A stretch of DNA of 48,709 nucleotides from a virus (IMGVR_UViG_3300042339_000806); one strand, 5' to 3'; counted from the stretch's first letter, positions 3,970 to 48,709 are shown. The notes: generated from the sequence alone by a model not told the origin. Numbers and translations are program-made.

Positions 3970-5172
3970 ATGGCAAATATTCAAATCTGGGATGGTAGTA
4001 CAAACTTCATAGCAGGGGAATCAACTCCCTTTGGCTTTTATGATGATGACTTATCTTTCCAAGAAGATGCACCTAAGGTAGCACGTTATTGTGCTGAGAA
4101 ATTAGGATGGCCGGTACTAGATATAGAATTACACGAAAGACAACTTTACGCAGCTTTTGAAGAAGCAGTTACTGCTTACGGAAAAGAAGTAATAGAAGCT
4201 ATAACTGCAGAGACATTATCTTCCCAATTAGGAGGAAGTGCTGGAGGTTCAGCTGTAAATCAAACTATATTTAGACCTAGTTTACAGAATGTAATTCTAA
4301 CAAGTGCACAATACGGAACAGAAGCAGGAGTAGGAGGACCAGTTACCCTAAGAACAGCAATGATTGATCTTGTAGCAAACCAACAAGACTATAACCTTAC
4401 AACTCTAATAGGACAAGGAGCAATTGAAATACGAAAAGTATTTTACGAAGCACCTCCTGCTATTATGAGATACTTTGACCCATATGCAGGAACAGGAACA
4501 GGTATTCAGTCTCTTATGGATGCATTTGATTTTGGATCATTCTCACCAGGGGTAAACTTCTTATTGATGCCAGCATCTTATGATGTATTAAAAACACAAG
4601 CAATTGAGTTTAACGATCAAATAAGAAAATCAACTTACTCTTTTGAGATTCATAATAATATATTAACTTTATTTCCAGTACCAGCAAAAGCCGGTAAATT
4701 AAAAGTACAGTATTATATACTCAGTGAAAAAACAGGTCAATACATAAGTGATACTATTTCATTTGCAGCTTCTGCAAATTCTTCTGGAGCAATAACAGGA
4801 ACAGGAGGAAGTAGTTCAACAACAGGTGTAACAACCAATATGTCAAATGCTAATGCACAAAATTTAGTATACTCTGAAATAAACGCAATAGGACGTCAGT
4901 GGATATTCAAGTATGCAGCAGCTACCTGTAAAGAGATATTAGCATACGTTAGAGGTAAGTACGAAACAGTACCAGTACCAGGATCAGAAGTTAGGTTAAA
5001 TGCAGCAGATTTATTAGCAGATGCAAGAACAGAGAAAGCTACTTTGGTAGAATCTTTAAAAGCAACAATGCAAACAGCATCTCTAACAAACCAGCTTTCC
5101 TTACAAGCAACACAAACACAATATATCAATGATGCTTTATCTAAAGTACCAATGTTAATATACGTAGGATAA
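3970..5172 (+). CDS. Neck/head-tail adaptor protein (T4 gp13-like)
   Basis: 400 aa; LGWPVLDIEL...QLYAAFEEAV, QQDYNL, WIFKYAAATCKEILAYVRGKY, VRLNAADLL; position after the capsid gene. Confidence 0.75.
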   Translation: MANIQIWDGSTNFIAGESTPFGFYDDDLSFQEDAPKVARYCAEKLGWPVLDIELHERQLYAAFEEAVTAYGKEVIEAITAETLSSQLGGSAGGSAVNQTIFRPSLQNVILTSAQYGTEAGVGGPVTLRTAMIDLVANQQDYNLTTLIGQGAIEIRKVFYEAPPAIMRYFDPYAGTGTGIQSLMDAFDFGSFSPGVNFLLMPASYDVLKTQAIEFNDQIRKSTYSFEIHNNILTLFPVPAKAGKLKVQYYILSEKTGQYISDTISFAASANSSGAITGTGGSSSTTGVTTNMSNANAQNLVYSEINAIGRQWIFKYAAATCKEILAYVRGKYETVPVPGSEVRLNAADLLADARTEKATLVESLKATMQTASLTNQLSLQATQTQYINDALSKVPMLIYVG

Positions 5173-5471
5173 TGAGAAAACTAATAAACGAAGTAACTTT
5201 TGGAATATACCAAGGCCTTATCAGGGTTGGTCACAAAGATGAAATTACAGCTTCAGAGGTTGCAGATTTCGTTAGAGCTATGCCAGGTGTTACAAGAGTT
5301 ACAGCTATTGATTCAGATGAAGATAGAAATATAGTTGTACTAAAAGTAAAAATATTAACTGCCAAACCAGGTCCAGTTGTATTTGAAAAGTTAAAAAAAG
5401 ATACATTTAAGTTAGTACCTAATATTAAAAAGGTAGACTTGTCTTTAAAATCAATTGAAAAAATAGAATAA
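5172..5471 (+). CDS. Hypothetical protein
   Basis: 99 aa, translationally coupled on both sides (TAATG overlaps). Confidence 0.75.
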   Translation: MRKLINEVTFGIYQGLIRVGHKDEITASEVADFVRAMPGVTRVTAIDSDEDRNIVVLKVKILTAKPGPVVFEKLKKDTFKLVPNIKKVDLSLKSIEKIE

Positions 5472-6019
5472 TGATATTCGGAAGCCAAAGAGATTTTAAT
5501 CTACTTATAAAGATAAACAGAGAGTTATTATCAGATGTAATAGAACAAGAAATTCTCTATTACAAAATGTCTTTGGAAGAAACTCAAGCAAACATATACG
5601 GAGAAGCTCAGGAAAAAGTTTATTGGTCACCAGTAAAAGTTAATTGTCTTATTGATAGAGGAGAGCCAGGAATGTCTGTAGATGATTTTGGACCTGATAG
5701 AGGAAGATCTACAAGTTTTAAATTTTTAAGAGAAGATTTAAAAGATGTAAATACTGTACCTGAAGTAGGGGATATTATACAGTGGCAAGAAGATTACTAC
5801 GAAGTAGATAACACTGTAGAGAACCAGCTATTTGTAGGTAGAGACGAGAATTATAACCTAACTGACTACGGACCAGACTATGCAGGAACACTTTCTATTA
5901 TATGTGTATGCCATTTAACAAGAGCAGATAAAGTTGGAATAGTTTCAAGATATGAAGCAACACCAATAGACTCTAATTCAATTACAACGGCAACTACACA
6001 AGCAAATACAATATTATAA
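5471..6019 (+). CDS. Head closure/neck protein (T4 gp14-like)
   Basis: NIYGEA, PEVGDIIQWQEDYYEV motifs and synteny between gp13-like and gp15-like genes. Confidence 0.7.
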   Translation: MIFGSQRDFNLLIKINRELLSDVIEQEILYYKMSLEETQANIYGEAQEKVYWSPVKVNCLIDRGEPGMSVDDFGPDRGRSTSFKFLREDLKDVNTVPEVGDIIQWQEDYYEVDNTVENQLFVGRDENYNLTDYGPDYAGTLSIICVCHLTRADKVGIVSRYEATPIDSNSITTATTQANTIL

Positions 6020-7245
6020 TGGCATTAACAAGAAAACCTGTACCGAAATCACAAGTCGAATTGTCTCAAGAGACTATTCAACCTTACTTAAGTCAAGGTA
6101 AATCTCTTGTACCTGCTAATAAAAAAAGAGAGAATCAAAGAACTGTAAAAGGAGATGATGTAAAGCAGTTTCAAGTAGGATTAAAAGATGTAGATGAATC
6201 TATATTCTACTACTTCAACAATATAATTAGACCATCAGTAATTCAGAACAGCATAAAAGTAAACGTTCCGGTTATTTATGGATCACCAGAAAGATGGGCA
6301 GCAATGCAAAAAGATGGATTTTACAGAGATAAAAACGGTAAGATTCAAACACCTCTTATAATGGTTAAAAGAGATTCTATTGAAAAGAATAGATCACTTG
6401 GAAATAAAATGGATGCAAATAATCCTGTACATTTTGGAGTATTTCAAAAAAAATATTCACAAAAAAATGTATACGATAGATTTTCTACTTTAAATAATAG
6501 AGAACCTGTTAAAGAATATTACGGAGTTATTATGCCGGACTATGTAAACCTGGTTTACTCATGTGTTATTTTTACAGAATACGTAGAGCAAATGAATAAG
6601 ATAGTAGAGTCAGTGAACTTTGCATCAGATTCATACTGGGGAGATCCAGAAAGATTTAAGTTTAGAGCAGCAATTGATAACTATTCAACAACAACTGAAT
6701 TAGTTGAAGGAGGAGACAGAACAGTAAAGACTTCTTTTCAAATTAAAATAGCAGGGTATATTGTATCGGATGCAATTAATACAAATGTAGGTAATCCAAA
6801 TAAGTTTTTCTCCAAAGCTGCAGTAAGTTTTGGAATAGAAACAGCAACTAGTAGCACCTCCCTACAGAGACAAGCTACAACCTCAACTAAAGCAGGTTCA
6901 ACAAGGTTTTATGATCAACTCCCAGTAACTATAGTACAGGATAATAGTATGACAACAGCACAGATAGAATTTATCTCACTTAACAACACTGAAGTAGTAA
7001 CCGGTACAAGTATTGTAAGTGGGGATACAGCAGTATTTTCAGGTAAAGCATTTGCAATACCTCCACCTGGCTTCACAATAACTCAGGAATCTTTTGCTAT
7101 TTATATAAACAGTACCTATATTCCAAATAGTCAGAGAACAGTTTCTCAAGAAAGTGGGGATATAGTGGTAGTATTCGATACCGCTAGCATCAAGTATACT
7201 CTTTCAGGAGCAGACGAAATAGTGATAGTAGGAAAATTTAATTAG
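6019..7245 (+). CDS. Tail terminator/sheath stabiliser (T4 gp15-like) with C-terminal extension
   Basis: VPVIYGSPERW, TPLIMVKR, PDYVNLVYSCVIFT, EQMNKIVE motifs; synteny. Confidence 0.7.
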   Translation: MALTRKPVPKSQVELSQETIQPYLSQGKSLVPANKKRENQRTVKGDDVKQFQVGLKDVDESIFYYFNNIIRPSVIQNSIKVNVPVIYGSPERWAAMQKDGFYRDKNGKIQTPLIMVKRDSIEKNRSLGNKMDANNPVHFGVFQKKYSQKNVYDRFSTLNNREPVKEYYGVIMPDYVNLVYSCVIFTEYVEQMNKIVESVNFASDSYWGDPERFKFRAAIDNYSTTTELVEGGDRTVKTSFQIKIAGYIVSDAINTNVGNPNKFFSKAAVSFGIETATSSTSLQRQATTSTKAGSTRFYDQLPVTIVQDNSMTTAQIEFISLNNTEVVTGTSIVSGDTAVFSGKAFAIPPPGFTITQESFAIYINSTYIPNSQRTVSQESGDIVVVFDTASIKYTLSGADEIVIVGKFN

Positions 7246-7250
7246 AAGAA

Positions 7251-7616
7251 ATGGCATTAATACGATGGAAACAGTTAACAGGTGACTTAAACGGAGCACC
7301 TGTATTTACCGGATCACTCCAGATATCTGGATCTATTGTACTGAACGGAATTGATTTATCTATCAATCAAAGTATTTTTAGACAAACAGGGTCCTATTGG
7401 AATACAACAAGAAATATAGGAATAACAGGATCTTTTCAACTTAATCTTAGTGAAGTAGGTCAGTATTTTGCAATATCAGTTGGAGGAAATGAAAAGATAA
7501 AAGTGAATACAGAAGGAACTTTGCAATTAGCACCACAGAGCGTAACACCGACAGCAGTAACAGGGGGTATCTTTTATAGTTCAAGTGATGCTTTCTTCTT
7601 AGGGTTCAATAATTAG
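7251..7616 (+). CDS. Small virion structural/fibre-associated protein
   Basis: 121 aa, TGS/SGS-rich beta-strand pattern; N-terminal RWKQL resembles the WKK starts of downstream fibre genes. Confidence 0.65.
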   Translation: MALIRWKQLTGDLNGAPVFTGSLQISGSIVLNGIDLSINQSIFRQTGSYWNTTRNIGITGSFQLNLSEVGQYFAISVGGNEKIKVNTEGTLQLAPQSVTPTAVTGGIFYSSSDAFFLGFNN

Positions 7617-7619
7617 AGA

Positions 7620-7627
7620 TATTTATT
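7620..7627 (+). promoter_or_regulatory. TATTTATT variant of TATTTATA motif
   Basis: Intergenic; TATTTAT core (7620-7626) ends 22 nt before ATG 7649. Confidence 0.45.
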
Positions 7628-7648
7628 AATAAAATAAAACAATAAAAC

Positions 7649-8719
7649 ATGGCAAATTGGAAAAAAGTCATTGTCAGCGGCTCGTCAGCGCACTTACTAA
7701 GTGTAACAGCTTCTAACTTAACAGATGACAACTTAGTAATAGCAGGTGCAGGAGGAGCATTAGAAAGCAGCGGACTTACCTACAATGGAACTTTATTAAA
7801 CCTAGGAACTGCTCAAGTACAAGCAGCAGGATTCTCAGGATCATTCTCTGGATCTTTTCAAGGGAATGGAGCAAACCTAACAGGAATTGTAGCAACAGGT
7901 ACATCTTTACAAAACGCTATAGCAAGCGGAGAAGGTATTGCACCATTTAGCTATACAAATATAGCACCAGTTTCAGTAGCAGTATCTGGAGCAATAGATT
8001 TAACAGATAACGCTATTACAAAATGGGATAACGATGCAGGTAAGTTTCAAACTTCTTCTTTACTTGATAATGGTATTGAAATTACAGGTGTTACTTCAAT
8101 TCAGTTAACAGGAGGTGCTTCAAATCTTTCTGGATCTTTTTCAGGATCTTTCCAAGGAAACGGAGCAGGGTTAACAGGATTAGTTTCTACCTTAAACGTA
8201 TCTGGCTCAGCAGGTAATGGAGCAGTTGACCTAAAAACTCAAACGTTTACTATTGCAGGTACCTCTCTAGAGGTTGAGACATCAATGTCAGGTCAAACTC
8301 TTACAATTGGTTTACCAAGTGATGTTACAATTGGAAATAATTTAACAGTAACAGGAGATTTATTTGTAAATGGTACAACTACTCAGGTAAACACAACTGA
8401 CTTGTATGTAGAAGATAAATTCATTATCTTAGCATCAGGATCAGCTTCAGCAGGAGATGCAGGTATTATTATTGATAGAGGATCAGATGCAGCAGGAAAT
8501 ATTGCTTTTGGATACGATGTAGATACAGATAGATGGGGATTCCAAAACGGATTAACAGATACACAAAATGCTATTACAATCGGTACAAACGGTAATAGTG
8601 CATTTGTAGGATATGTATTCACAGAAGCAGCTCACGTATCAGCACCAACAACAGGAGAATTTGTAGCAGCAGGAGCAATATACACAGCAACATCAGGAGA
8701 TATTTTTATATATTCATAA
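7649..8719 (+). CDS. Fibre-like virion structural protein
   Basis: 356 aa; repeated SGSFSGSFQGNGAxLTG; segment GDLFVNGTTTQVNTTDLYVEDKFIIL...DAGIIIDRG is typical of phage fibre proteins. Confidence 0.7.
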   Translation: MANWKKVIVSGSSAHLLSVTASNLTDDNLVIAGAGGALESSGLTYNGTLLNLGTAQVQAAGFSGSFSGSFQGNGANLTGIVATGTSLQNAIASGEGIAPFSYTNIAPVSVAVSGAIDLTDNAITKWDNDAGKFQTSSLLDNGIEITGVTSIQLTGGASNLSGSFSGSFQGNGAGLTGLVSTLNVSGSAGNGAVDLKTQTFTIAGTSLEVETSMSGQTLTIGLPSDVTIGNNLTVTGDLFVNGTTTQVNTTDLYVEDKFIILASGSASAGDAGIIIDRGSDAAGNIAFGYDVDTDRWGFQNGLTDTQNAITIGTNGNSAFVGYVFTEAAHVSAPTTGEFVAAGAIYTATSGDIFIYS

Positions 8720-8744
8720 TAGTTATTAAATAAAAAAAGTTATA

Positions 8745-8927
8745 ATGGGATTAATAGACAAGATTAGGCCTCAACTAAAACAAGAAGAGACTGAAAGTTT
8801 TACAGCAGAAGAGTTAAAGTTTTTACTCTTAAAATTGAGATCGGCAACCTACACAGGACATGAATTTGAGACGTTTTACAATATATGGGTTAAGGTAACA
8901 AAAGAATTAGAAAGATTAGAAAAATAA
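8745..8927 (+). CDS. Small helical protein (putative fibre chaperone)
   Basis: 60 aa; aligns without gaps to the next ORF (EE..L...L......G...........K...E). Confidence 0.65.
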   Translation: MGLIDKIRPQLKQEETESFTAEELKFLLLKLRSATYTGHEFETFYNIWVKVTKELERLEK

Positions 8928-8929
8928 AC

Positions 8930-8951
8930 AAGAGCCTTAGGGCTCTTTTTT
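8930..8951 (+). terminator. Rho-independent terminator
   Basis: AAGAGCC-ttag-GGCTCTT plus T-run. Confidence 0.8.
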
Positions 8952-8956
8952 GTTAG

Positions 8957-8987
8957 TTGATTCTTTAAAAAAAATCTCATAACTTAA
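8957..8987 (+). promoter_or_regulatory. TTG-N20-TAACTTAA promoter (Bacteroidota -33/-7-like)
   Basis: TTG 8957-8959, exactly 20 nt, then TAACTTAA 8980-8987; same spacing at four other sites. Confidence 0.6.
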
Positions 8988-8999
8988 AAAGAAAAACAT

Positions 9000-9224
9000 A
9001 TGAACTTATTTAGCATAGATAACTTATCCTTAGAAGAAATAAACCTCCTAAGACAATCACTTAACGTAATCGAAATAAAAGGGGCTTCGGCTATCTTTGT
9101 AGCTACTCTTCAAGTAAAACTAGATCAAGAGATTTCTCAAATCCGTACTATGATTGAGGAAGAAGAGAAAAAAAAGCAAGCAGGTATTCTAAAGATAGAA
9201 AAAGCTGCTAAAGCAGAACTATAA
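9000..9224 (+). CDS. Small coiled-coil protein (putative fibre chaperone)
   Basis: 74 aa, heptad-like; paralogous pattern with 8745..8927. Confidence 0.7.
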   Translation: MNLFSIDNLSLEEINLLRQSLNVIEIKGASAIFVATLQVKLDQEISQIRTMIEEEEKKKQAGILKIEKAAKAEL

Positions 9225-9226
9225 GA

Positions 9227-9234
9227 TATTTATA
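9227..9234 (+). promoter_or_regulatory. TATTTATA motif
   Basis: Exact copy, 68 nt before ATG 9303, ahead of a structured leader. Confidence 0.55.
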
Positions 9235-9246
9235 TTATATATTATA

Positions 9247-9288
9247 GACCTGAAGAAGGAAGTGGGCCGGCAATCCGGTAACCAATCG
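9247..9288 (+). promoter_or_regulatory. Candidate structured 5' leader RNA
   Basis: 24/42 nt G+C in an AT-rich spacer; hairpins CCU-gaaga-AGG and GCCGG-caau-CCGGU closed by UGG/CCA. Confidence 0.4.
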
Positions 9289-9302
9289 TAATAATACTTA
9301 AT

Positions 9303-14287
<4,985 letters not shown>

Positions 14288-14288
<1 letters not shown>

Positions 14289-15022
14289 TGGCTGAGATTC
14301 ATGGACCAAGACATAATAAAGTTTCAGACGTAAGAGGTCCTTCAGGTTTTTATTCAATAAAACTTGGAGGGGAATACGTTACTGTATATGTAGACCAGGA
14401 GTATGATGGCGGTGGTTGGATATGTGTTTTAGCCAATAGAATTAATACAGGAGGTATGTCAAATTTAACATACTCAAATGCTGTAAATACAAGTAACTAT
14501 AGAACTGGAGGTTCTACAAATACAGCAGGACCGGTAGTAGACCCGTATTCACCTCTATCAGGATTATCAAATTATAATATTTGGATAGGAACCAAATATT
14601 GGGAATTATTAGGAAAAAGAGCAAATTCAAGCTATGTAACAGTAGTAAATTTTGTATCAACAACAACAGGTGCGGCATTAGGATCAACTGGATTACATAC
14701 AAAAAGGTATAGATGGAGATTTAATAACTTTACTTCGACATATGCATTTAGCGGTGCAGCAGCCATAAGTGATGAGACATCAACAGGATCACCAGGTATG
14801 TACTCCTATCATGCTCTTAATGGATTTAGTCTAACAACATACGATGGTGATCAAGATGCAAACGGGGATGGAAACTGTTCAACATATTACAACAATAACC
14901 CATTCTGGTATGGATATTGCTGGTCAGGAAACTGGTTCGCAGGAGGAGGGTATCAAGATACATCTTATTGGGATAGTTCTACTACAGATTATCATAATTA
15001 CGGAGCAGTTTATATAAAATAA
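14288..15022 (+). CDS. Fibrinogen-related domain (FReD)-like protein, putative lectin/adhesin
   Basis: SGFYSIK...VTVYVDQEYDGGGWICV at the N-terminus and FSLTTYDGDQD...NCSTYY..PFWYGYCW at the C-terminus match the fibrinogen-C pattern. Confidence 0.65.
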
Positions 15023-38578: not shown

Positions 38579-39034
38579 ATGATACAAAATAATGTAGCGC
38601 CAACAATATTCGATTATGACATCGAGTATAATTTTAATGCAGCCGACATGAGCAATAAGTTATTTTGTACTTTTTCTTCTGAACAACAACTAGAAGGTAT
38701 ATTAAGTACAATACAGACCAAATACAAGATCATTTATAACAAAATTTTCGTTCTTTATTCAAAGAGCCAAGATGAATATATCTGTACATATAATGTAGAA
38801 TTTGGAAACGTTTCTAATTTCTTAGAAAATACTATCTTAGTACATAGAAAAAAAGAATCAAACACCCTATACACAATCAATTCACTAAATCGTCTAATAG
38901 AGTCTTTAAACGGAGGAGTATTAGATACAAGCTTTAAAGTAGATTGGAATGACTATCAAAACTGCATACTATTAACAAAAGGTGCAGAACTAAAAAGAGT
39001 CAACACAAAATTATTTAGAATTATAGAACTATAG
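38579..39034 (+). CDS. Hypothetical protein (start may be ATG 38648, MSNKLFCTF)
   Basis: 151-aa ORF between the polymerase and SSB genes. Confidence 0.75.
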   Translation: MIQNNVAPTIFDYDIEYNFNAADMSNKLFCTFSSEQQLEGILSTIQTKYKIIYNKIFVLYSKSQDEYICTYNVEFGNVSNFLENTILVHRKKESNTLYTINSLNRLIESLNGGVLDTSFKVDWNDYQNCILLTKGAELKRVNTKLFRIIEL

Positions 39035-43476: not shown

Positions 43477-44454
43477 ATGAGTCTAAAAGACGAACGCATA
43501 GTTTATAAACCATTTGAATACCCACAAGCACACGATTACTGGCTTAAAGCGCACCAAGCGCACTGGTTACATACAGAAGTTCCAATGTCACAAGACGTAA
43601 CAGATTGGAATTCAAACCTTAAACCGCACGAAAAAAACCTTATAGGAGGAATCCTAAAAGGCTTTGCTCAAACAGAAACAGTTGTAAATGATTACTGGAC
43701 ATCTTTAGTAACAAAATGGTTTAGAAAACCAGAAGTTATTATGATGGCAGTTACTTTTGGAGCTTTCGAAACAATCCATGCTGAAGCATATGCTTTACTA
43801 AACGAACAATTAGGATTAGATAATTTTGCAGAATTCTTAGAAGACGAATCAACTGCAGCTAAAATTCAATCTTTAATGGATGTTAGAGATGGAAATGCAG
43901 GAGAAACAGATTGGCATGAAGCAGCTAGATCTCTAGCAATATTCTCAGCATTTACTGAAGGAGTAAATTTATTCTCTTCTTTTGCAGTATTGTTATCATT
44001 TAAAATGAGAAACAAGCTAAAAGGAGTAGGGCAGATAGTTGAATGGTCTGTAAGAGATGAATCACTTCACTCAGAAGCAGGATGTTGGTTATTCAGAACT
44101 TTAATGGAAGAATATCCAGAATTAAAAACAGAAAGACTTATCAACGATATTAGAGAAGCGGCAACGCTTGCTTTAGAATTAGAATTCAATTTTATTGATA
44201 AAGTATTTGAAATGGGAGATTTAGAAAACTTATCTAAAAACGAACTAAAAAACTTTATTAAACACAGAGTAAATACTAAGATGGGAGATTTAGGATTAAA
44301 ACCATTAATACCTTCAGATCAAATCGATAAAGGAGCTTTAAAACAAATGTTATGGTTTGATGCTGTAGTAGCAGGAAAACAGCATACAGATTTTTTCGCA
44401 TCAAGAGTAACAAATTATGCTAAAGGGCATATGGATTGGGACAACGCATTTTAA
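43477..44454 (+). CDS. nrdB: Ribonucleotide reductase class I beta subunit
   Basis: FETIHAEAY, FTEGVNLFSSF, RDESLH diiron ligands; HTDFF...NY tail. Confidence 0.95.
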   Translation: MSLKDERIVYKPFEYPQAHDYWLKAHQAHWLHTEVPMSQDVTDWNSNLKPHEKNLIGGILKGFAQTETVVNDYWTSLVTKWFRKPEVIMMAVTFGAFETIHAEAYALLNEQLGLDNFAEFLEDESTAAKIQSLMDVRDGNAGETDWHEAARSLAIFSAFTEGVNLFSSFAVLLSFKMRNKLKGVGQIVEWSVRDESLHSEAGCWLFRTLMEEYPELKTERLINDIREAATLALELEFNFIDKVFEMGDLENLSKNELKNFIKHRVNTKMGDLGLKPLIPSDQIDKGALKQMLWFDAVVAGKQHTDFFASRVTNYAKGHMDWDNAF

Positions 44455-44463
44455 TTTAATTTT

Positions 44464-46173
44464 ATGGGAGTAGATTACAGTACCTGGAAACCAGGTGTAG
44501 ATTATCCGGAATGGATGAATGAAGTATCTTTGGCTACAATTTCAAATGGTTATTTATTACCTGATGAAAATCCAAAGAAAGCTTACAAAAGAGTTGCTGA
44601 TGCAGTAGCTAAGAGATTAGATCGTCCTGATCTAGCAAATAAATTTTACAAGTACATGTGGAAGGGTTGGTTAAACCTAGCTTCACCTGTATTATCAAAC
44701 ACTGGAACTGACAAAGGACTTCCAATCTCATGTTTCGGTATAGATACTCCTGATTCAATCAGAGGTATAGGATTAACTAATGCAGAACTAATGAGACTTA
44801 CTTCTTTAGGAGGAGGAGTTGGAATTGGATTAGGAAGAGTTAGAGGAAGAGGAAAGAAGATCGCAAATGGCGATACAGGTAACTCAGAAGGAATTGTGCC
44901 TTGGGCTAAGATCTATGATTCAACTATCATTGCTACAAATCAAGGATCAGTTCGTAGAGGAGCAGCTTCTGTAAACTTAGATATTAATCACGAAGACATA
45001 AAAGAGTTTTTACGTATTAGAAGACCTCAAGGAGATCCAAACCGTCAGTGTTTAAATTTACACCAATGTGTTTCTATTGATGATAAGTTTATGCAGAGAT
45101 TAGAGCATAGAGATCCAGAGGCAATGGAATTATGGGTTGAGATTTTAAAGTCAAGAGTTGAGACAGGAGAGCCTTATCTTATGTTTAAGGATAACGTTAA
45201 CAACGCTAATCCACAGGCATACGTAAAAAACAACTTAGATGTAACAATGACTAATATCTGTTCAGAGATTGCATTACATACTGACGAAGAGCATTCATTT
45301 GTTTGTTGTTTATCTTCTTTGAATATTACAAGATACGATGAGTGGAAAGATACTGACTTAGTTGAAACAGCAATCTATTTCTTAGACGGAGTATTAGAAG
45401 AATTTTTAGTTAAGACAAATGGTAAAGATTCTATGATTAGAGCACACCGTTCTGCTAAAAAAGGAAGAGCATTAGGATTAGGAGTATTAGGATGGCATTC
45501 ATTCTTACAATCAAAAGGATTACCATTTAATTCAATCGCATCTACTTCTTGGACAAATAGAATATTTGCACAGATTAAAACACAAGCAGAAGCAGCTTCT
45601 AGAAAATTAGCTGAAGAGTATGGTGAACCAATCTGGTGTAAAGGAACAGGAATGAGAAATACGCATTTAATTGCTATTGCTCCAACAGTATCCAATTCAA
45701 CAATCTCAGGAGGAGTATCAGCAGGTATTGAACCAATTCCAGCAAACGTTTATACTTTTAATTCATCTAAAGGAACTTTTATTAGAAAGAATCCAGTATT
45801 AGAAAAGTATTTAGAAGACAAAGGACATAATACAGAAGAGGTATGGCAACAAATTTTAAAAGATAGAGGATCAATTGCAAATCTACCTGAAGACATTATG
45901 CCGTTTGACGATAAAGAAGTATTCTTAACATTTGCAGAAATAAATCAATTGGCTTTAGTAGAACAGGCTTCAGTAAGACAGAAGTATGTTGACCAGGCTC
46001 AATCATTAAACTTAGCATTCGATCCGGGAGATAGTCCTAAATTTATAAACCTTGTTCACCAGACAGCTTGGAAACTTGGATTAAAAACGTTATATTATCT
46101 AAGAACCGATTCTGTCATAAACGGAGATATTGGAAGTAGAACTTCTGAAGACTGTTTAAGCTGTGATGGATAA
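44464..46173 (+). CDS. nrdA: Ribonucleotide reductase class I alpha subunit (short, no evident ATP-cone)
   Basis: PISCF, GGGVG, RRGA, TNICSEI, IAIAPT, GIEP, DQAQSLN, LKTLYY, C-terminal CLSCDG. Confidence 0.95.
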   Translation: MGVDYSTWKPGVDYPEWMNEVSLATISNGYLLPDENPKKAYKRVADAVAKRLDRPDLANKFYKYMWKGWLNLASPVLSNTGTDKGLPISCFGIDTPDSIRGIGLTNAELMRLTSLGGGVGIGLGRVRGRGKKIANGDTGNSEGIVPWAKIYDSTIIATNQGSVRRGAASVNLDINHEDIKEFLRIRRPQGDPNRQCLNLHQCVSIDDKFMQRLEHRDPEAMELWVEILKSRVETGEPYLMFKDNVNNANPQAYVKNNLDVTMTNICSEIALHTDEEHSFVCCLSSLNITRYDEWKDTDLVETAIYFLDGVLEEFLVKTNGKDSMIRAHRSAKKGRALGLGVLGWHSFLQSKGLPFNSIASTSWTNRIFAQIKTQAEAASRKLAEEYGEPIWCKGTGMRNTHLIAIAPTVSNSTISGGVSAGIEPIPANVYTFNSSKGTFIRKNPVLEKYLEDKGHNTEEVWQQILKDRGSIANLPEDIMPFDDKEVFLTFAEINQLALVEQASVRQKYVDQAQSLNLAFDPGDSPKFINLVHQTAWKLGLKTLYYLRTDSVINGDIGSRTSEDCLSCDG

Positions 46174-46184
46174 AAAATAAAAAT

Positions 46185-46640
46185 ATGACACTATTAATTA
46201 TTTCACTATTTCTAGCAGTTGTAATTTTTCTACTAACAGTAAAGCTAAAAGACTATGTAGAAGAAGTAGCGCAATTGAGAAAACAAATTGAAGAAACAGC
46301 TGCAGCTCATATAATTGAGAAAGCAAAAGTAAAAAAAGATTCAACATTTAGATCTTCAGCAGTTAACTGGGGTAAAACAATTGAACACTTTGTTCCGTTT
46401 ATGACAAAGTTCCCTATACCGGCAGAAGATGTAGTATTCCTAGGAATGCCAATCGACTATGTAGGGTTTACTAACACAGAGAGTAAAACCAAATGTGAGG
46501 TACATTTCATTGAAGTAAAATCAGGAAATGCATTTTTAATGGGAAAACAAAAGAATATTAAAAAAGCAATTCAAGAAGGAAGAGTTCACTGGCATGAAAT
46601 TGCAGTAGATGGAAACCGAGTAGAGATCACGGAAGAATAG
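46185..46640 (+). CDS. Holliday-junction-resolvase-like PD-(D/E)xK endonuclease with N-terminal hydrophobic helix
   Basis: GKTIEHFVPF, FLGMPIDYVGF, FIEVKSG, QKNIKKAIQEGRV. Confidence 0.75.
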   Translation: MTLLIISLFLAVVIFLLTVKLKDYVEEVAQLRKQIEETAAAHIIEKAKVKKDSTFRSSAVNWGKTIEHFVPFMTKFPIPAEDVVFLGMPIDYVGFTNTESKTKCEVHFIEVKSGNAFLMGKQKNIKKAIQEGRVHWHEIAVDGNRVEITEE

Positions 46641-46641
46641 C

Positions 46642-46649
46642 TATTTATA
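46642..46649 (+). promoter_or_regulatory. TATTTATA motif
   Basis: Exact copy, 4 nt before ATG 46654 (31 nt before alternative ATG 46681). Confidence 0.5.
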
Positions 46650-46653
46650 TGAA

Positions 46654-47652
46654 ATGAATATATTAGCCAAAATAGTAAAAATGTTATACCCTCTACTAAT
46701 ACTAGGGGGTATTTTATCTACGTACGGTCAAACCTTTACGCACTCTGGTTATATCTATGGATCAAACGCTACAGGTATACAAGGAGTACAGGTGCAGTTA
46801 TATAGTAGAACAACACCTACTTTAACAGGATTTACAAACCAGCAAAATTATAACGGACATTCCTATTATAGATCAACAAGTTCAATGACATGGACAGCTG
46901 CAAGACAGGCTTGTGCTAATATGGGAGGATATTTAGTAACTGTAACTACAGCAGCTGAAAATAACTTTATATTTAACTTATGGTCTGATGGATGGATAGG
47001 ATTAACAGATGAAGTAGTAGAAGGCCAATGGAGATGGGTAACAGGAGAGCCGTACACTTGGGGAAACTGGAACTCAGGAGAACCTAATAATTCAAATAAT
47101 GAAGATTATACTCAATTTGTAGGAAACGGTAAATGGAATGATTTACCAAATACATCTTTACCGTATGTATTAGAATTTGACTATATAGTGACTTTTACAC
47201 CCTGGACTTTGGTAACAACAGCAACAACAGATGTAACAGGGAGATATGTATTTTCAACACCAACAAATCCTTCTGTAGAATATTACATAACTTTTACTCC
47301 TCCAACCCTACCTACATTGCAAATAAGTGATGCACAGATTTCAAACACTGTAACTCTAGGATCACTGGCTTTAAAGAGTAGAGACTATTTTAGATTTGAT
47401 GTTAATAATGATGGTAGAGTAACAATATCAGATACTTATTCAATATTTGCTAGAAGAAACGGAATATTTACATCCTTTCCAGCATCCCCTCCAGACAGTA
47501 GAATATTTACAACAACTCAATGGAGTACAATTAATGCAAGTACAACAAACCTGAAAGCAACATTTCCAGGGGTACAGACAATTACAATTAATACACCTGT
47601 ATCGGGTGGAGTTTCTTCTTACTATATTACTAGACTAGGGTATAGCAACTAA
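46654..47652 (+). CDS. Secreted C-type lectin domain protein with C-terminal dockerin-like module
   Basis: Signal peptide ...STYG|Q; CTLD 46849-47178 with WIGL, EPN (47080) and WND (47134); DVNNDGRVTISD loop at 47398-47433. Confidence 0.8.
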   Translation: MNILAKIVKMLYPLLILGGILSTYGQTFTHSGYIYGSNATGIQGVQVQLYSRTTPTLTGFTNQQNYNGHSYYRSTSSMTWTAARQACANMGGYLVTVTTAAENNFIFNLWSDGWIGLTDEVVEGQWRWVTGEPYTWGNWNSGEPNNSNNEDYTQFVGNGKWNDLPNTSLPYVLEFDYIVTFTPWTLVTTATTDVTGRYVFSTPTNPSVEYYITFTPPTLPTLQISDAQISNTVTLGSLALKSRDYFRFDVNNDGRVTISDTYSIFARRNGIFTSFPASPPDSRIFTTTQWSTINASTTNLKATFPGVQTITINTPVSGGVSSYYITRLGYSN

Positions 47653-47661
47653 AATCAGTAC

Positions 47662-47669
47662 TATTTATA
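47662..47669 (+). promoter_or_regulatory. TATTTATA motif
   Basis: Exact copy, 61 nt before ATG 47731. Confidence 0.5.
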
Positions 47670-47730
47670 AAAGGTATGAGAGTGCATAAGCACCCGGTTG
47701 TGAAATAAAAATAACTTAAAAACAAAAGAA

Positions 47731-48708
47731 ATGAAAAAATTACTTTTAGTATTGAGTTTAGTTTTAGTATCATTAACAGGATTTGCACAAACTATCGCAC
47801 CTGATGCTACTAAGCCTTACTTAATATTTGACGCTAGTTACAACCTGGCACCACTTGGAGCAACACCTACAAACGTTGCAATTTATTATGATAATGCTGG
47901 TTCTACAGCTATCAAAGCAGTACAGTACAGATTTTGGTACGACAAAAACGTATTTGCTTCTCCTACAGTGACTTACACTGGAACTGAAGCAAACAATTAT
48001 TTCCAAACATTAGTAAATGCTACTGAAGGAAATGTAACAGTTACATGGGTTTACACAGGAGCAGATGCTGCTTTCAATATTGCTGACGGAGCAATGTTCA
48101 ACGTAGCTTTACCATTTAAAGCAGGTTATACAAACGGTGCAGTAACAGCAATGGCGTTTACAGGAGCGACAGCTTACCCGGCTTACGGTACTCTAGCAAA
48201 TGGAACTGATACTACACTAGGATTACATAATTACGGAGGAGCGTTCACAGAACCAGTATTTAACTATGCTGCTACATTCTTAAATGATCCAACCAACCCA
48301 GCTTCAGACGTTCCAGTAATATTACAAAAATCTTCAAACGGAACAACTTGGGTAGATGTAATGACAGTTAATACAGCAACTACAACAGGAGTAGCATCAT
48401 TCACAACTAACTTAGATCAAAACTACTGGCAAATTAGAGTAAAAGTAGCACCAGGATTAACAGCACCAGGAGCATTAGCAGCAGCAGATGCAAATATGAT
48501 TGCTCAAATCGCTACAGGAATACAAGCTCCAACTGGAACTCAATTCTATACTGCTAACCCTAACCAAGCAAATGGAATAACAATTTCAGATTCATATACA
48601 GTATTCTCTAGATTGGCTCAAGGTTTATCAGTTTACCCAAACACACCTGATTTACTATTCTTTACAGAAGCTCAATACAACACTATTGCAGCAGCTACAA
48701 CAGATCAG
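47731..48708 (+). CDS. Secreted cohesin-like + dockerin-like protein (partial, runs off right edge; absent from the ORF track)
   Basis: Hand-translated 326 open codons: MKKLLLVLSLVLVSLTGFA|QTIAP...; cohesin pattern VAIYYDN..IKAVQYRFWYD..GNVTVTW..DGAMFNVALPFK; later segment aligns with the dockerin-like module of the previous gene. Confidence 0.8.
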   Translation, partial: MKKLLLVLSLVLVSLTGFAQTIAPDATKPYLIFDASYNLAPLGATPTNVAIYYDNAGSTAIKAVQYRFWYDKNVFASPTVTYTGTEANNYFQTLVNATEGNVTVTWVYTGADAAFNIADGAMFNVALPFKAGYTNGAVTAMAFTGATAYPAYGTLANGTDTTLGLHNYGGAFTEPVFNYAATFLNDPTNPASDVPVILQKSSNGTTWVDVMTVNTATTTGVASFTTNLDQNYWQIRVKVAPGLTAPGALAAADANMIAQIATGIQAPTGTQFYTANPNQANGITISDSYTVFSRLAQGLSVYPNTPDLLFFTEAQYNTIAAATTDQ

Positions 48709-48709
48709 T

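Follow-up and report, generated by a model that had tools for sequence, protein, structure and literature searches.

Gene layout and domain composition of g1 and g2

The last 2 kb of the viral DNA IMGVR_UViG_3300042339_000806, which we analysed over its whole length of 48,709 nucleotides (the window), hold two tandem open reading frames (ORFs) on the + strand, here called g1 and g2. A previous reading of the sequence alone (the sequence-only reading) had placed two tandem genes here, each behind a TATTTATA motif, and had taken them for a secreted cohesin-dockerin-lectin module; both genes and both motifs are present. The first gene, g1 (46654..47652), is predicted to encode an exported lectin subunit of 332 amino acids (aa), composed of a signal peptide, a split Ig-like domain with an inserted C-type lectin, a dockerin-like module and a C-terminal extension. 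The second, g2 (47731..48708), probably encodes an adaptor or scaffold subunit. With its ORF still open at the window end, the window holds the first 326 aa of about 363, the full length being 363 aa in the related locus L002 (94% identical) and in Flavobacterium phage vB_FspM_immuto (76%). This phage, an Immutovirus of 160 kb from the Baltic Sea, shares about 85% DNA identity with positions 44000-48709 as well as the gene order, and its genes 13, 14 and 15 correspond to g1, g2 and a third gene, g3, known from relatives. The window additionally codes for a tail fibre, tail sheath, tail tube and baseplate hub. Synteny with immuto and the box common to g1, g2 and the virion genes agree with the earlier assignment of the pair to the phage and not to flanking host DNA. 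The source is a lake Flavobacterium phage.

Both proteins begin with a putative signal peptide, judged by eye: a few basic residues precede a hydrophobic segment, and a cut site of small residues with Gln behind it comes next. In g1 it comprises aa 1-25 (46654..46728, + strand), with Gln26 following the predicted cut, and is conserved in homologues. In g2 it comprises aa 1-19 (47731..47787, + strand), and Gln20 behind the predicted cut is invariant in 24 homologous sequences.

The head of g1 is a C-type lectin domain of about aa 60-180 (46831..47193, + strand). As evidenced by a match of residues 77-168 to Pfam Lectin_C (PF00059) with an E-value of 2.6e-17 (63.9 bits against a cut-off of 22.6), the assignment of the domain is firm. 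Among structures in the PDB it matches the C-type lectin-like domains (CTLDs) of the mannose receptor family with E-values down to 4.5e-27. The EPN motif (residues 143-145; 47080-47088), the following Glu (NED-Y) and the WND motif (residues 161-163; 47134-47142) align with EPN, ED and WND of mannose receptor 2, which form Ca site 2 and the sugar ligands. The domain thereby resembles animal Ca-dependent C-type lectins such as MBP-A, DC-SIGN and the mannose receptor CTLDs. Unlike these, it is of prokaryotic and viral context, seems to interrupt a loop of a bacterial Ig-like domain, and lacks the canonical four Cys and two disulfides: the whole g1 protein contains a single Cys (Cys87), therefore neither conserved disulfide can form. 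Both Gln-exposing signal peptides, the intact EPN and WND motifs and the one remaining Cys of four had been noted from the sequence before and all stand. The motifs point to a Ca-dependent lectin of the EPN type, which would bind mannose, GlcNAc or glucose-type sugars.

The lectin seems to interrupt a second domain. Residues 26-56 (46729..46821, + strand) would form the first strands of an Ig-like sandwich (CarboxypepD_reg/SdrD_B-like), and residues 183-222 (47200..47319, + strand; Pfam SdrD_B 0.0013) its second half. We read this as an insertion into a hairpin of the sandwich for three reasons. Residues 26-56 are conserved in homologues that carry a PA14 or LamG head instead of Lectin_C; SdrD_B aligns residues 185-219 with profile positions 37-69 of 112, i.e. 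only with the second sandwich half, after the lectin; and when aa 57-182 are deleted in silico, the alignment to the g2 profile runs continuously through positions 184-358. The deletion raises the score from 48.1 to 51.5 bits, a modest gain of 3 bits that makes the insertion suggestive.

For g2, aa 24-176 (47800..48258, + strand) probably form a divergent cohesin-type domain, as had been suspected. The g2 relative P0179 (78% identical) matches Pfam Cohesin (PF00963) over residues 37-147 with an E-value of 1.5e-5 and 25.7 bits, above the cut-off of 24.1, and another relative, P0226, matches at 0.011. When the model of the N-terminal domain (per-residue confidence, pLDDT, 56-77) was compared with 48,161 chains using VIA-align, ranks 1-7 were all cohesins, with Z 6.1-6.8 over 98-107 aligned residues and a root mean square deviation of 3.3-3.9. 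Z-scores below 8 are middling on their own, and the weight lies in the unbroken run of one family. Foldseek, of which the VIA-align search is independent, likewise returned cohesins at a probability of 1.0 and an E-value of about 1e-2. The nearest language-model neighbours of g2 are viral Atlas clusters with Cohesin, Dockerin_1 and T9SS (type IX secretion system) sorting domains (0.97), along with bacterial cohesin/beta-sandwich/dockerin proteins of the same size. Searching the PDB sequences with the g2 profile gave nothing, and with g2 alone nothing meaningful; PHROGs gave no match for either g1 or g2. Together, the relatives and the structure models support a cohesin fold.

The cohesin-type domain of g2 is followed by an Ig-like/transthyretin-like sandwich (aa 179-242; 48265..48456, + strand), with weak matches to Big_1, Transthyretin and MG4 in homologues and fold matches to MG, pilin and transthyretin domains at Z 5-6. 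A dockerin-like module (aa 243-326; 48457..48708, + strand) closes the available sequence, and its extension is cut by the window end.

Both genes follow closely on the TATTTATA box. The g1 copy (46642..46649, + strand) lies 4 nt before the ATG, and that of g2 (47662..47669, + strand) 61 nt before it. The motif occurs 15 times in the window against 8.0 +/- 3.1 expected; the + (coding) strand has 13 of them, of which 11 fall into intergenic DNA, a part of 3,615 bases or 7.4% of the window. The intergenic copies (1862, 3514, 9227, 23806, 25979, 26568, 27589, 30658, 38570, 46642 and 47662, all on the + strand) lie 1-70 nt upstream of ORFs, including the genes for the tail fibre (9303), sheath (23839), tube (26008) and baseplate hub (26606), and also one replication-module gene at 38579. 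The box is conserved at -12 of g1 in 9 related loci; for g2, 6 close relatives have it at -65 to -72 and two distant relatives at -30/-35. This distribution suggests a phage promoter-like element and argues that g1 and g2 are phage-controlled. Since the box precedes the replication-module gene too, it does not fix the timing of g1 and g2 expression. TATTTATA is similar to the T4 late promoter TATAAATA and does not have the G of the Bacteroidota -7 box. In the 61 nt between the box and the start of g2, around 47680-47712, lie a small GTGC-ATAA-GCAC hairpin and a 10-codon mini-ORF with its ATG at 47676.

A tail shared by g1 and g2 and its modelled contact with cohesin

The C-terminal parts of g1 and g2 are homologous. 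BLASTP aligns them with an E-value of 5e-7 and 31% identity over 67 aa, and a g2 profile matches g1 residues 165-332 at 1e-13 to 1e-15. The homologous span of about 168 aa is thus longer than the roughly 75 residues seen from the sequence at first. In g1, aa 223-270 (47320..47463, + strand) resemble the F-hand pair of dockerins. The first loop is degenerate, keeping only the position-12 Asp and the helix SDAQISNTVTLG; the second, DVNNDGRVTISD at residues 249-260 (47398-47433), is canonical (D249, N251, D253 and D260) and runs into the helix TYSIFARRNG. A conserved C-terminal extension (aa 271-332; 47464..47649, + strand) follows, which ends in YYITRLGYSN, is homologous to the same part of g2 and has no family match. 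In the window's g2 the module has the helix ADANMIAQIATG and a degenerate loop, NPNQANGITISD, at the place where distant g2 homologues carry DVNGDNQITISD, a canonical loop, or DVNGSNGITIAD. Both the dockerin-type loop of g1 and the degeneration of its g2 counterpart are as the sequence-only reading described them. Overall, 26 tails of the g1 and g2 types align near gap-free over 118 columns, with N37, D46, Y48, G92, Y110, G115 and N118 invariant.

The resemblance to dockerins is recurrent. Dockerin_1 (PF00404) is the commonest Pfam match of the module, found in 8 of the 26 copies (best 1.5e-4). The g1 tail matches it at 0.019-0.075 (13.7-15.6 bits) and the tails of g2 relatives at 0.002-0.017 (15.8-18.8 bits, profile positions 9-52 of 57), and against the PDB the module profile scores best with a type I dockerin (4dh2_B, E 0.013). 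Weighing against a true dockerin, no tail copy tested reaches the Pfam cut-off of 22.9 bits. Canonical Ca loops number one in g1 and none in the window's g2, and the tandem DxNxDGxxxxxD F-hand pattern is absent. The tail also carries an extra 60-70 aa that dockerins do not have (in g1, about 62 residues after the second helix). Because it has one good loop at most and an extension that dockerins lack, we call the tail dockerin-like: by its sequence it is related in kind to dockerins, but is not one. Of the dockerin modules originally proposed, the Ca loop of g1 and the affinity to dockerin families therefore stand, and the identity with dockerins proper does not.

We also considered the tails as divergent T9SS type B sorting domains, on account of a likeness to the PNGDG motif. 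NCBIfam and Pfam gave no match at E <= 1, and the idea is kept only within an improbable alternative weighed below. More generally, neither g1 nor g2 has a T9SS sorting domain of type A or B at E <= 1 in Pfam or NCBIfam. A cohesin or tail module was sought in the virion genes of the window as an alternative partner, and none was found. Elsewhere, a copy of the tail occurs in P0290 (L036:272-1072), a protein of 266 aa on a contig of only 1.2 kb, behind an Ig-like domain and an Mtd_N N-terminus (major tropism determinant, tail-fibre-type) that has no signal peptide.

We modelled the g1 tail as the partner of the g2 cohesin (residues 21-178) and the g3 cohesin (residues 18-160) with two Ca ions, both cohesins being present in one run. 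The interface score ipSAE was 0.82 (0.80-0.83), and the best control reached 0.50. Replacing the g1 tail brought the score to 0.00 and 0.01, while replacing the g2 cohesin left 0.50 and 49 confident contacts. Because of this remainder, the model appears to prefer the g2 cohesin and to sense the g3 cohesin as well. The pLDDT was 84-86 for the partner and 88-90 for the other chains, and three runs share at least 78% of their contacts. The calibration is only a rough yardstick here, as our own alignments were used and Ca was added: of 80 solved complexes 58 came up to the mark, and of 110 mismatched pairs 2.

The lowest-error contacts lie at g1 residues 257-265 (tail 43-51; loop positions 9-12 and the next helix) and 228-235 (tail 14-21; helix 1), facing g2 residues 62-65, 90-94, 103-111 and 150-160; residues 321-332 of the C-terminal extension are also among the interface residues. 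In the model, the contact is the canonical two-helix face of dockerins. The modelled interface of g3 consists of its most conserved residues (entropy 0.44 vs 0.85, p 0.002); that of the g1 tail shows no enrichment in conservation (p 0.86). The model makes binding of the g1 tail to a cohesin plausible. The docking anticipated by the sequence-only reading is to that extent supported; which cohesin is the partner is not cleanly assigned by a run that contains both.

The cassette in related phages

g2 is directly followed by g3 (243 aa) in phage immuto as well as in each of the 34 IMG/VR loci in which g2 was found. By synteny, we place g3 just past the window end in this genome. g3 is a cohesin: in L002 and phage immuto it matches Pfam Cohesin at about 7e-9, with 36.4-36.6 bits against the cut-off of 24.1. 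It also ends in a T9SS type A sorting domain (Por_Secre_tail, PF18962, 1e-8; TIGR04183, 6.6e-10), here referred to as the C-terminal domain (CTD). A T9SS C-terminal domain had been suggested as something to look for downstream, and it is indeed carried by g3 of the relatives, though by neither g1 nor g2.

All 34 loci have a g1-type gene, g2 and g3 in this order, at g2 identities of 52-94%; the pair, for which a survey of related phages had been proposed, recurs in them. Most of those loci that are sufficiently long also carry g7, g8 and g9 (in L002 at 11783-12505, 12505-13938 and 14024-14479), further signal-peptide proteins downstream of g3. g7 has CsgG/HfaB secretion-channel families as language-model neighbours (0.94) and no Pfam or NCBIfam match. 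g8 combines a Ser/Gly/Thr-rich middle with a barrel-like C-terminal half ending in Phe, and has weak Phage_OMP/outer-membrane-barrel neighbours (0.88).

In distant relatives of 630-670 aa, g2, the second cohesin and the CTD (there at 2.5e-10) form one polypeptide. These fused proteins (P0242, P0243, P0252, P0254, P0280, P0288 and L037:8001-9926) run from a cohesin-like and an Ig-like domain through the dockerin-like module to the cohesin and the T9SS CTD. The cassette around the fused gene retains g7-like, g8-like and Lectin_C+LamG genes, the latter with the same tail. In the fused locus L037 this Lectin_C+LamG gene (542 aa) stands after the g8-like gene, not before g2.

While the tail is constant, the heads at the g1 position are exchanged: Lectin_C, Lectin_C+LamG, LamG, PA14 and GEVED all occur. 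Where g2 copies share 92-96% identity, the neighbouring g1 tails share only 38-52%. Two tandem g1-type genes (L012:6060-7325 and L012:7329-8333), both with the dockerin-like tail, occur in one related phage. A similar pattern is seen in g3, where the CTD (residues 161-243) of L003-L008 is 55% identical to that of L009-L012 at a cohesin identity of 86-90%, compared with CTD identities of 88-89% in other loci; the sorting domain of g3 is apparently exchanged independently of its cohesin.

In metagenomes, relatives of g2 form at least 281 clusters at 90% identity; out of 1.84 billion, 103 representatives match at E <= 1e-3. The four immuto-phage records (three isolates and a RefSeq copy) are the only ones with a g2 relative out of 50,697 phage records, and in 185,579 species genomes such relatives are confined to two contigs of metagenome-assembled genomes (MAGs). 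One MAG contig of 248 kb (L039), binned as Flavobacteriaceae, holds the whole cassette of g1-type gene, g2, g3, g7, g8 and g9 at 4330-11001, directly after a peptidoglycan-binding, lysin-like gene; the contig may derive from a prophage, from a larger relative or from a phage that was binned wrongly. Sampled words of the window DNA were recovered to 100% in 15 lake-water metagenome runs and to 99% in three more. Four freshwater metatranscriptome runs contain contigs that are 90-97% identical to g2, but none for the variable g1. One metatranscriptome contig of a g2 relative starts at about 47668, just past the TATTTATA box, although contigs cannot prove a transcript start.

Two other genes of the window deserve mention. 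The tail fibre gene (9303-14288) encodes 1,661 aa with many collagen-like and tail-fibre PHROG matches (best 2.7e-104). Directly upstream of g1, a gene at 46185-46640 encodes an endonuclease like archaeal Holliday junction resolvases (Endonuc_Holl, 4.3e-22). Its 20 N-terminal residues are strongly hydrophobic, which is unusual in a nuclease; the immuto annotation has a later start.

A proposed envelope assembly and competing explanations

On balance, we lean towards the view that this conserved phage cassette builds a small protein assembly of the cohesin-dockerin type in the envelope of the infected Flavobacterium. All three core proteins would enter the periplasm through Sec. Since g3 joins a cohesin to a T9SS type A sorting domain, we take it to be cargo of the host type IX secretion system and thus the anchor, which would end on, or attached to, the cell surface. 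g2, with its cohesin, Ig-like domain and dockerin-like tail, would be the adaptor tied to g3, and g1 the exchangeable lectin head whose tail plugs into a cohesin. For their own export, g1 and g2 might ride on g3 or use the cassette's envelope proteins g7 and g8. In this way the infected cell, and later its debris, would carry lectins chosen by the phage that bind surface or environmental glycans. The likeliest uses would be masking of the phage's own glycan receptor, which would exclude superinfection and spare progeny from loss on debris, or attachment of the cell to other hosts or particles.

A fuller version seems unlikely to us: a three-tier, cellulosome-like lectin display in which a single T9SS-tagged cohesin carries or captures an adaptor and a lectin that have no CTD, and in which swappable heads track host glycans and mask the receptor on infected cells and debris. 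This would be the first Bacteroidota surface delivery by docking to T9SS cargo.

Besides the departures of the tail from dockerins, a number of results weigh against the proposed assembly. The window's own g2 has no Pfam Cohesin match at E <= 1, and hhalign of the g2 alignment against that of g3 gives only 4.7% probability. The AlphaFold2 models are poor, with a pLDDT of 53 for g1 and 48 for g2. In the g1 model the lectin scored low too and the C-terminal module is not legible, the best-modelled part being aa 183-222 (pLDDT 82-89); in the g2 model only the N-terminal domain and the Ig part were usable for fold searches. On g2, conservation at the predicted interface does not exceed that of the remaining domain (p 0.47), and the identities of the g1 tail do not co-vary with those of either cohesin (r 0.13-0.24). 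The score of the complex may reflect a likeness to solved cohesin-dockerin complexes and not affinity. The fused g2-g3 relatives, in which the two parts are linked covalently, keep the dockerin-like tail, which must therefore have another or an additional role. Having no T9SS sorting domain, g1 and g2 may never leave the periplasm before lysis, and no case of cargo without a CTD being exported by riding on a CTD protein is known to us. Finally, the metatranscriptome contigs could be DNA carry-over.

The same proteins might instead accumulate late in the periplasm and act there or after lysis, on peptidoglycan or envelope glycans, as a coat of debris or on released virions, with no T9SS display on living cells. 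We give this a small but real chance. It would fit the Sec-type N-termini of g1 and g2, which have no outer-membrane export signal, and the position of the cassette after a lysin-like, peptidoglycan-binding gene in the one MAG locus; P0290, with the tail behind Mtd_N and no signal peptide, indicates that the module can work in a virion-type protein. However, a T9SS type A sorting domain on g3 and on the fused g2-g3 proteins is only sensible if the host T9SS exports them, and none of the window's virion genes has a cohesin or tail module. The box common to g1, g2 and the tail genes suggests late co-expression, but its copy before the replication-module gene leaves late timing unproven by the box. 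Slightly less probable in our estimate is that the shared module is an export or anchoring device of its own, either a divergent sorting signal, perhaps for the CsgG-like g7 and barrel-like g8 that belong to the cassette (neighbour scores 0.94 and 0.88), or a binder of the outer membrane or lipopolysaccharide, while the cohesins bind something else. The module always stands at the C-terminus, is about 118 aa long and carries a conserved, unexplained extension that closes with a strand rich in aromatic residues; Dockerin_1 is never significant; and the fused proteins retain the module though they need no docking to g3. On the other hand, sorting-domain models, T9SS type B included, give no match at E <= 1. 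In Pfam as in the PDB, the best matches to the module come from dockerins. The complex model sets both helices on the cohesin sheet with high confidence and its score collapses once the module is replaced; moreover, dockerins are the only partner class of cohesins that we know of.

That the genes are independently acquired host-origin 'morons', neighbours by chance and with no joint function, we regard as highly improbable. CTLD, cohesin and T9SS CTD are typical of cellular proteins, and g1 is exchanged independently of g2 and g3. Nevertheless, the order of g1-type gene, g2 and g3 persists in 34 loci even where identity drops to 52%, distant relatives fuse g2 with g3 and still have the lectin gene in the same cassette, and g1 and g2 share the 168-aa homologous region. 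The rarity of g2 relatives in cellular genomes (2 MAG contigs among 185,579 species genomes) and their restriction to four immuto-phage records among 50,697 phage records also speak against chance neighbours of host origin.

The assembly we favour resembles cellulosome-type and non-cellulosomal assemblies, such as CipA and OlpB of Clostridium thermocellum with their type I and II dockerins (PDB 1ohz, 4dh2 and 3kcp), in its cohesin-fold receptors and in a module of Ca loop plus helix that, here in the model, sits on the cohesin sheet via loop positions 10-11 and the next helix. The tiers are also comparable: an anchor (g3), an adaptor with cohesin and dockerin-like parts (g2) and an effector (g1). 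Unlike in cellulosomes, the genes for the parts belong to a phage that infects a Gram-negative host of the Bacteroidota, a lectin takes the place of an enzyme as effector, and the anchor is a T9SS sorting domain and not an S-layer homology (SLH) domain or a sortase signal. The module itself differs from dockerins in having one or no canonical loop, scores below the Pfam cut-off and the 60-70 aa extension. T9SS-secreted adhesins of Flavobacterium johnsoniae such as RemA are lectin-bearing surface proteins, in which lectin and CTD are on one host-encoded polypeptide; here the two are split over phage proteins and, in our proposal, joined by cohesin-dockerin-like contacts. Curli-like CsgG/CsgF clusters have been reported for pelagimyophages and the Methylophilales phage Melnitz (PMC7029224, PMC9004378). 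These likewise would be phage-borne exported envelope proteins with a CsgG-like part (here g7, a lead from the language model), but in different hosts, and the CsgG assignment of g7 has no Pfam or NCBIfam support.

Another close published case concerns the T9SS itself. 'Cryophage', a Bacteroidota phage (Bellas et al. 2020, PMC7468147), has T9SS type A cargo genes, which differ strongly from one phage variant to the next and among which is one with a PA14 domain. Each Cryophage cargo has its own CTD, and the words cohesin, dockerin and lectin have 0 occurrences in the paper (PMC7468147). In the present cassette, by contrast, the variable heads have no CTD and instead a docking-type tail, next to a single CTD-bearing cohesin. 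No publication on a cohesin-dockerin or lectin display system of phages turned up in our literature search. The earlier statement that no such phage system was described holds in this sense, with the qualification that GenBank labels the immuto genes 'lectin C-type' and 'cohesin domain-containing' and that phage T9SS cargo has been published (PMC7468147).

If the proposal is true, widespread large Flavobacterium phages of fresh and brackish waters would remodel the infected cell's surface by means of a modular kit of one secretion-tagged anchor and exchangeable sugar-binding heads. Cohesin-dockerin assembly would thereby be extended to viruses and to T9SS-based surface display, and the docking pair would be a compact, naturally orthogonal tool to display proteins on the surface of Bacteroidota. 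A cultured relative with the same three genes is available in phage immuto, which grows on Flavobacterium sp. LMO8. For the abundant aquatic Bacteroidota, the cassette would offer a candidate mechanism for superinfection exclusion, receptor masking and cell aggregation.

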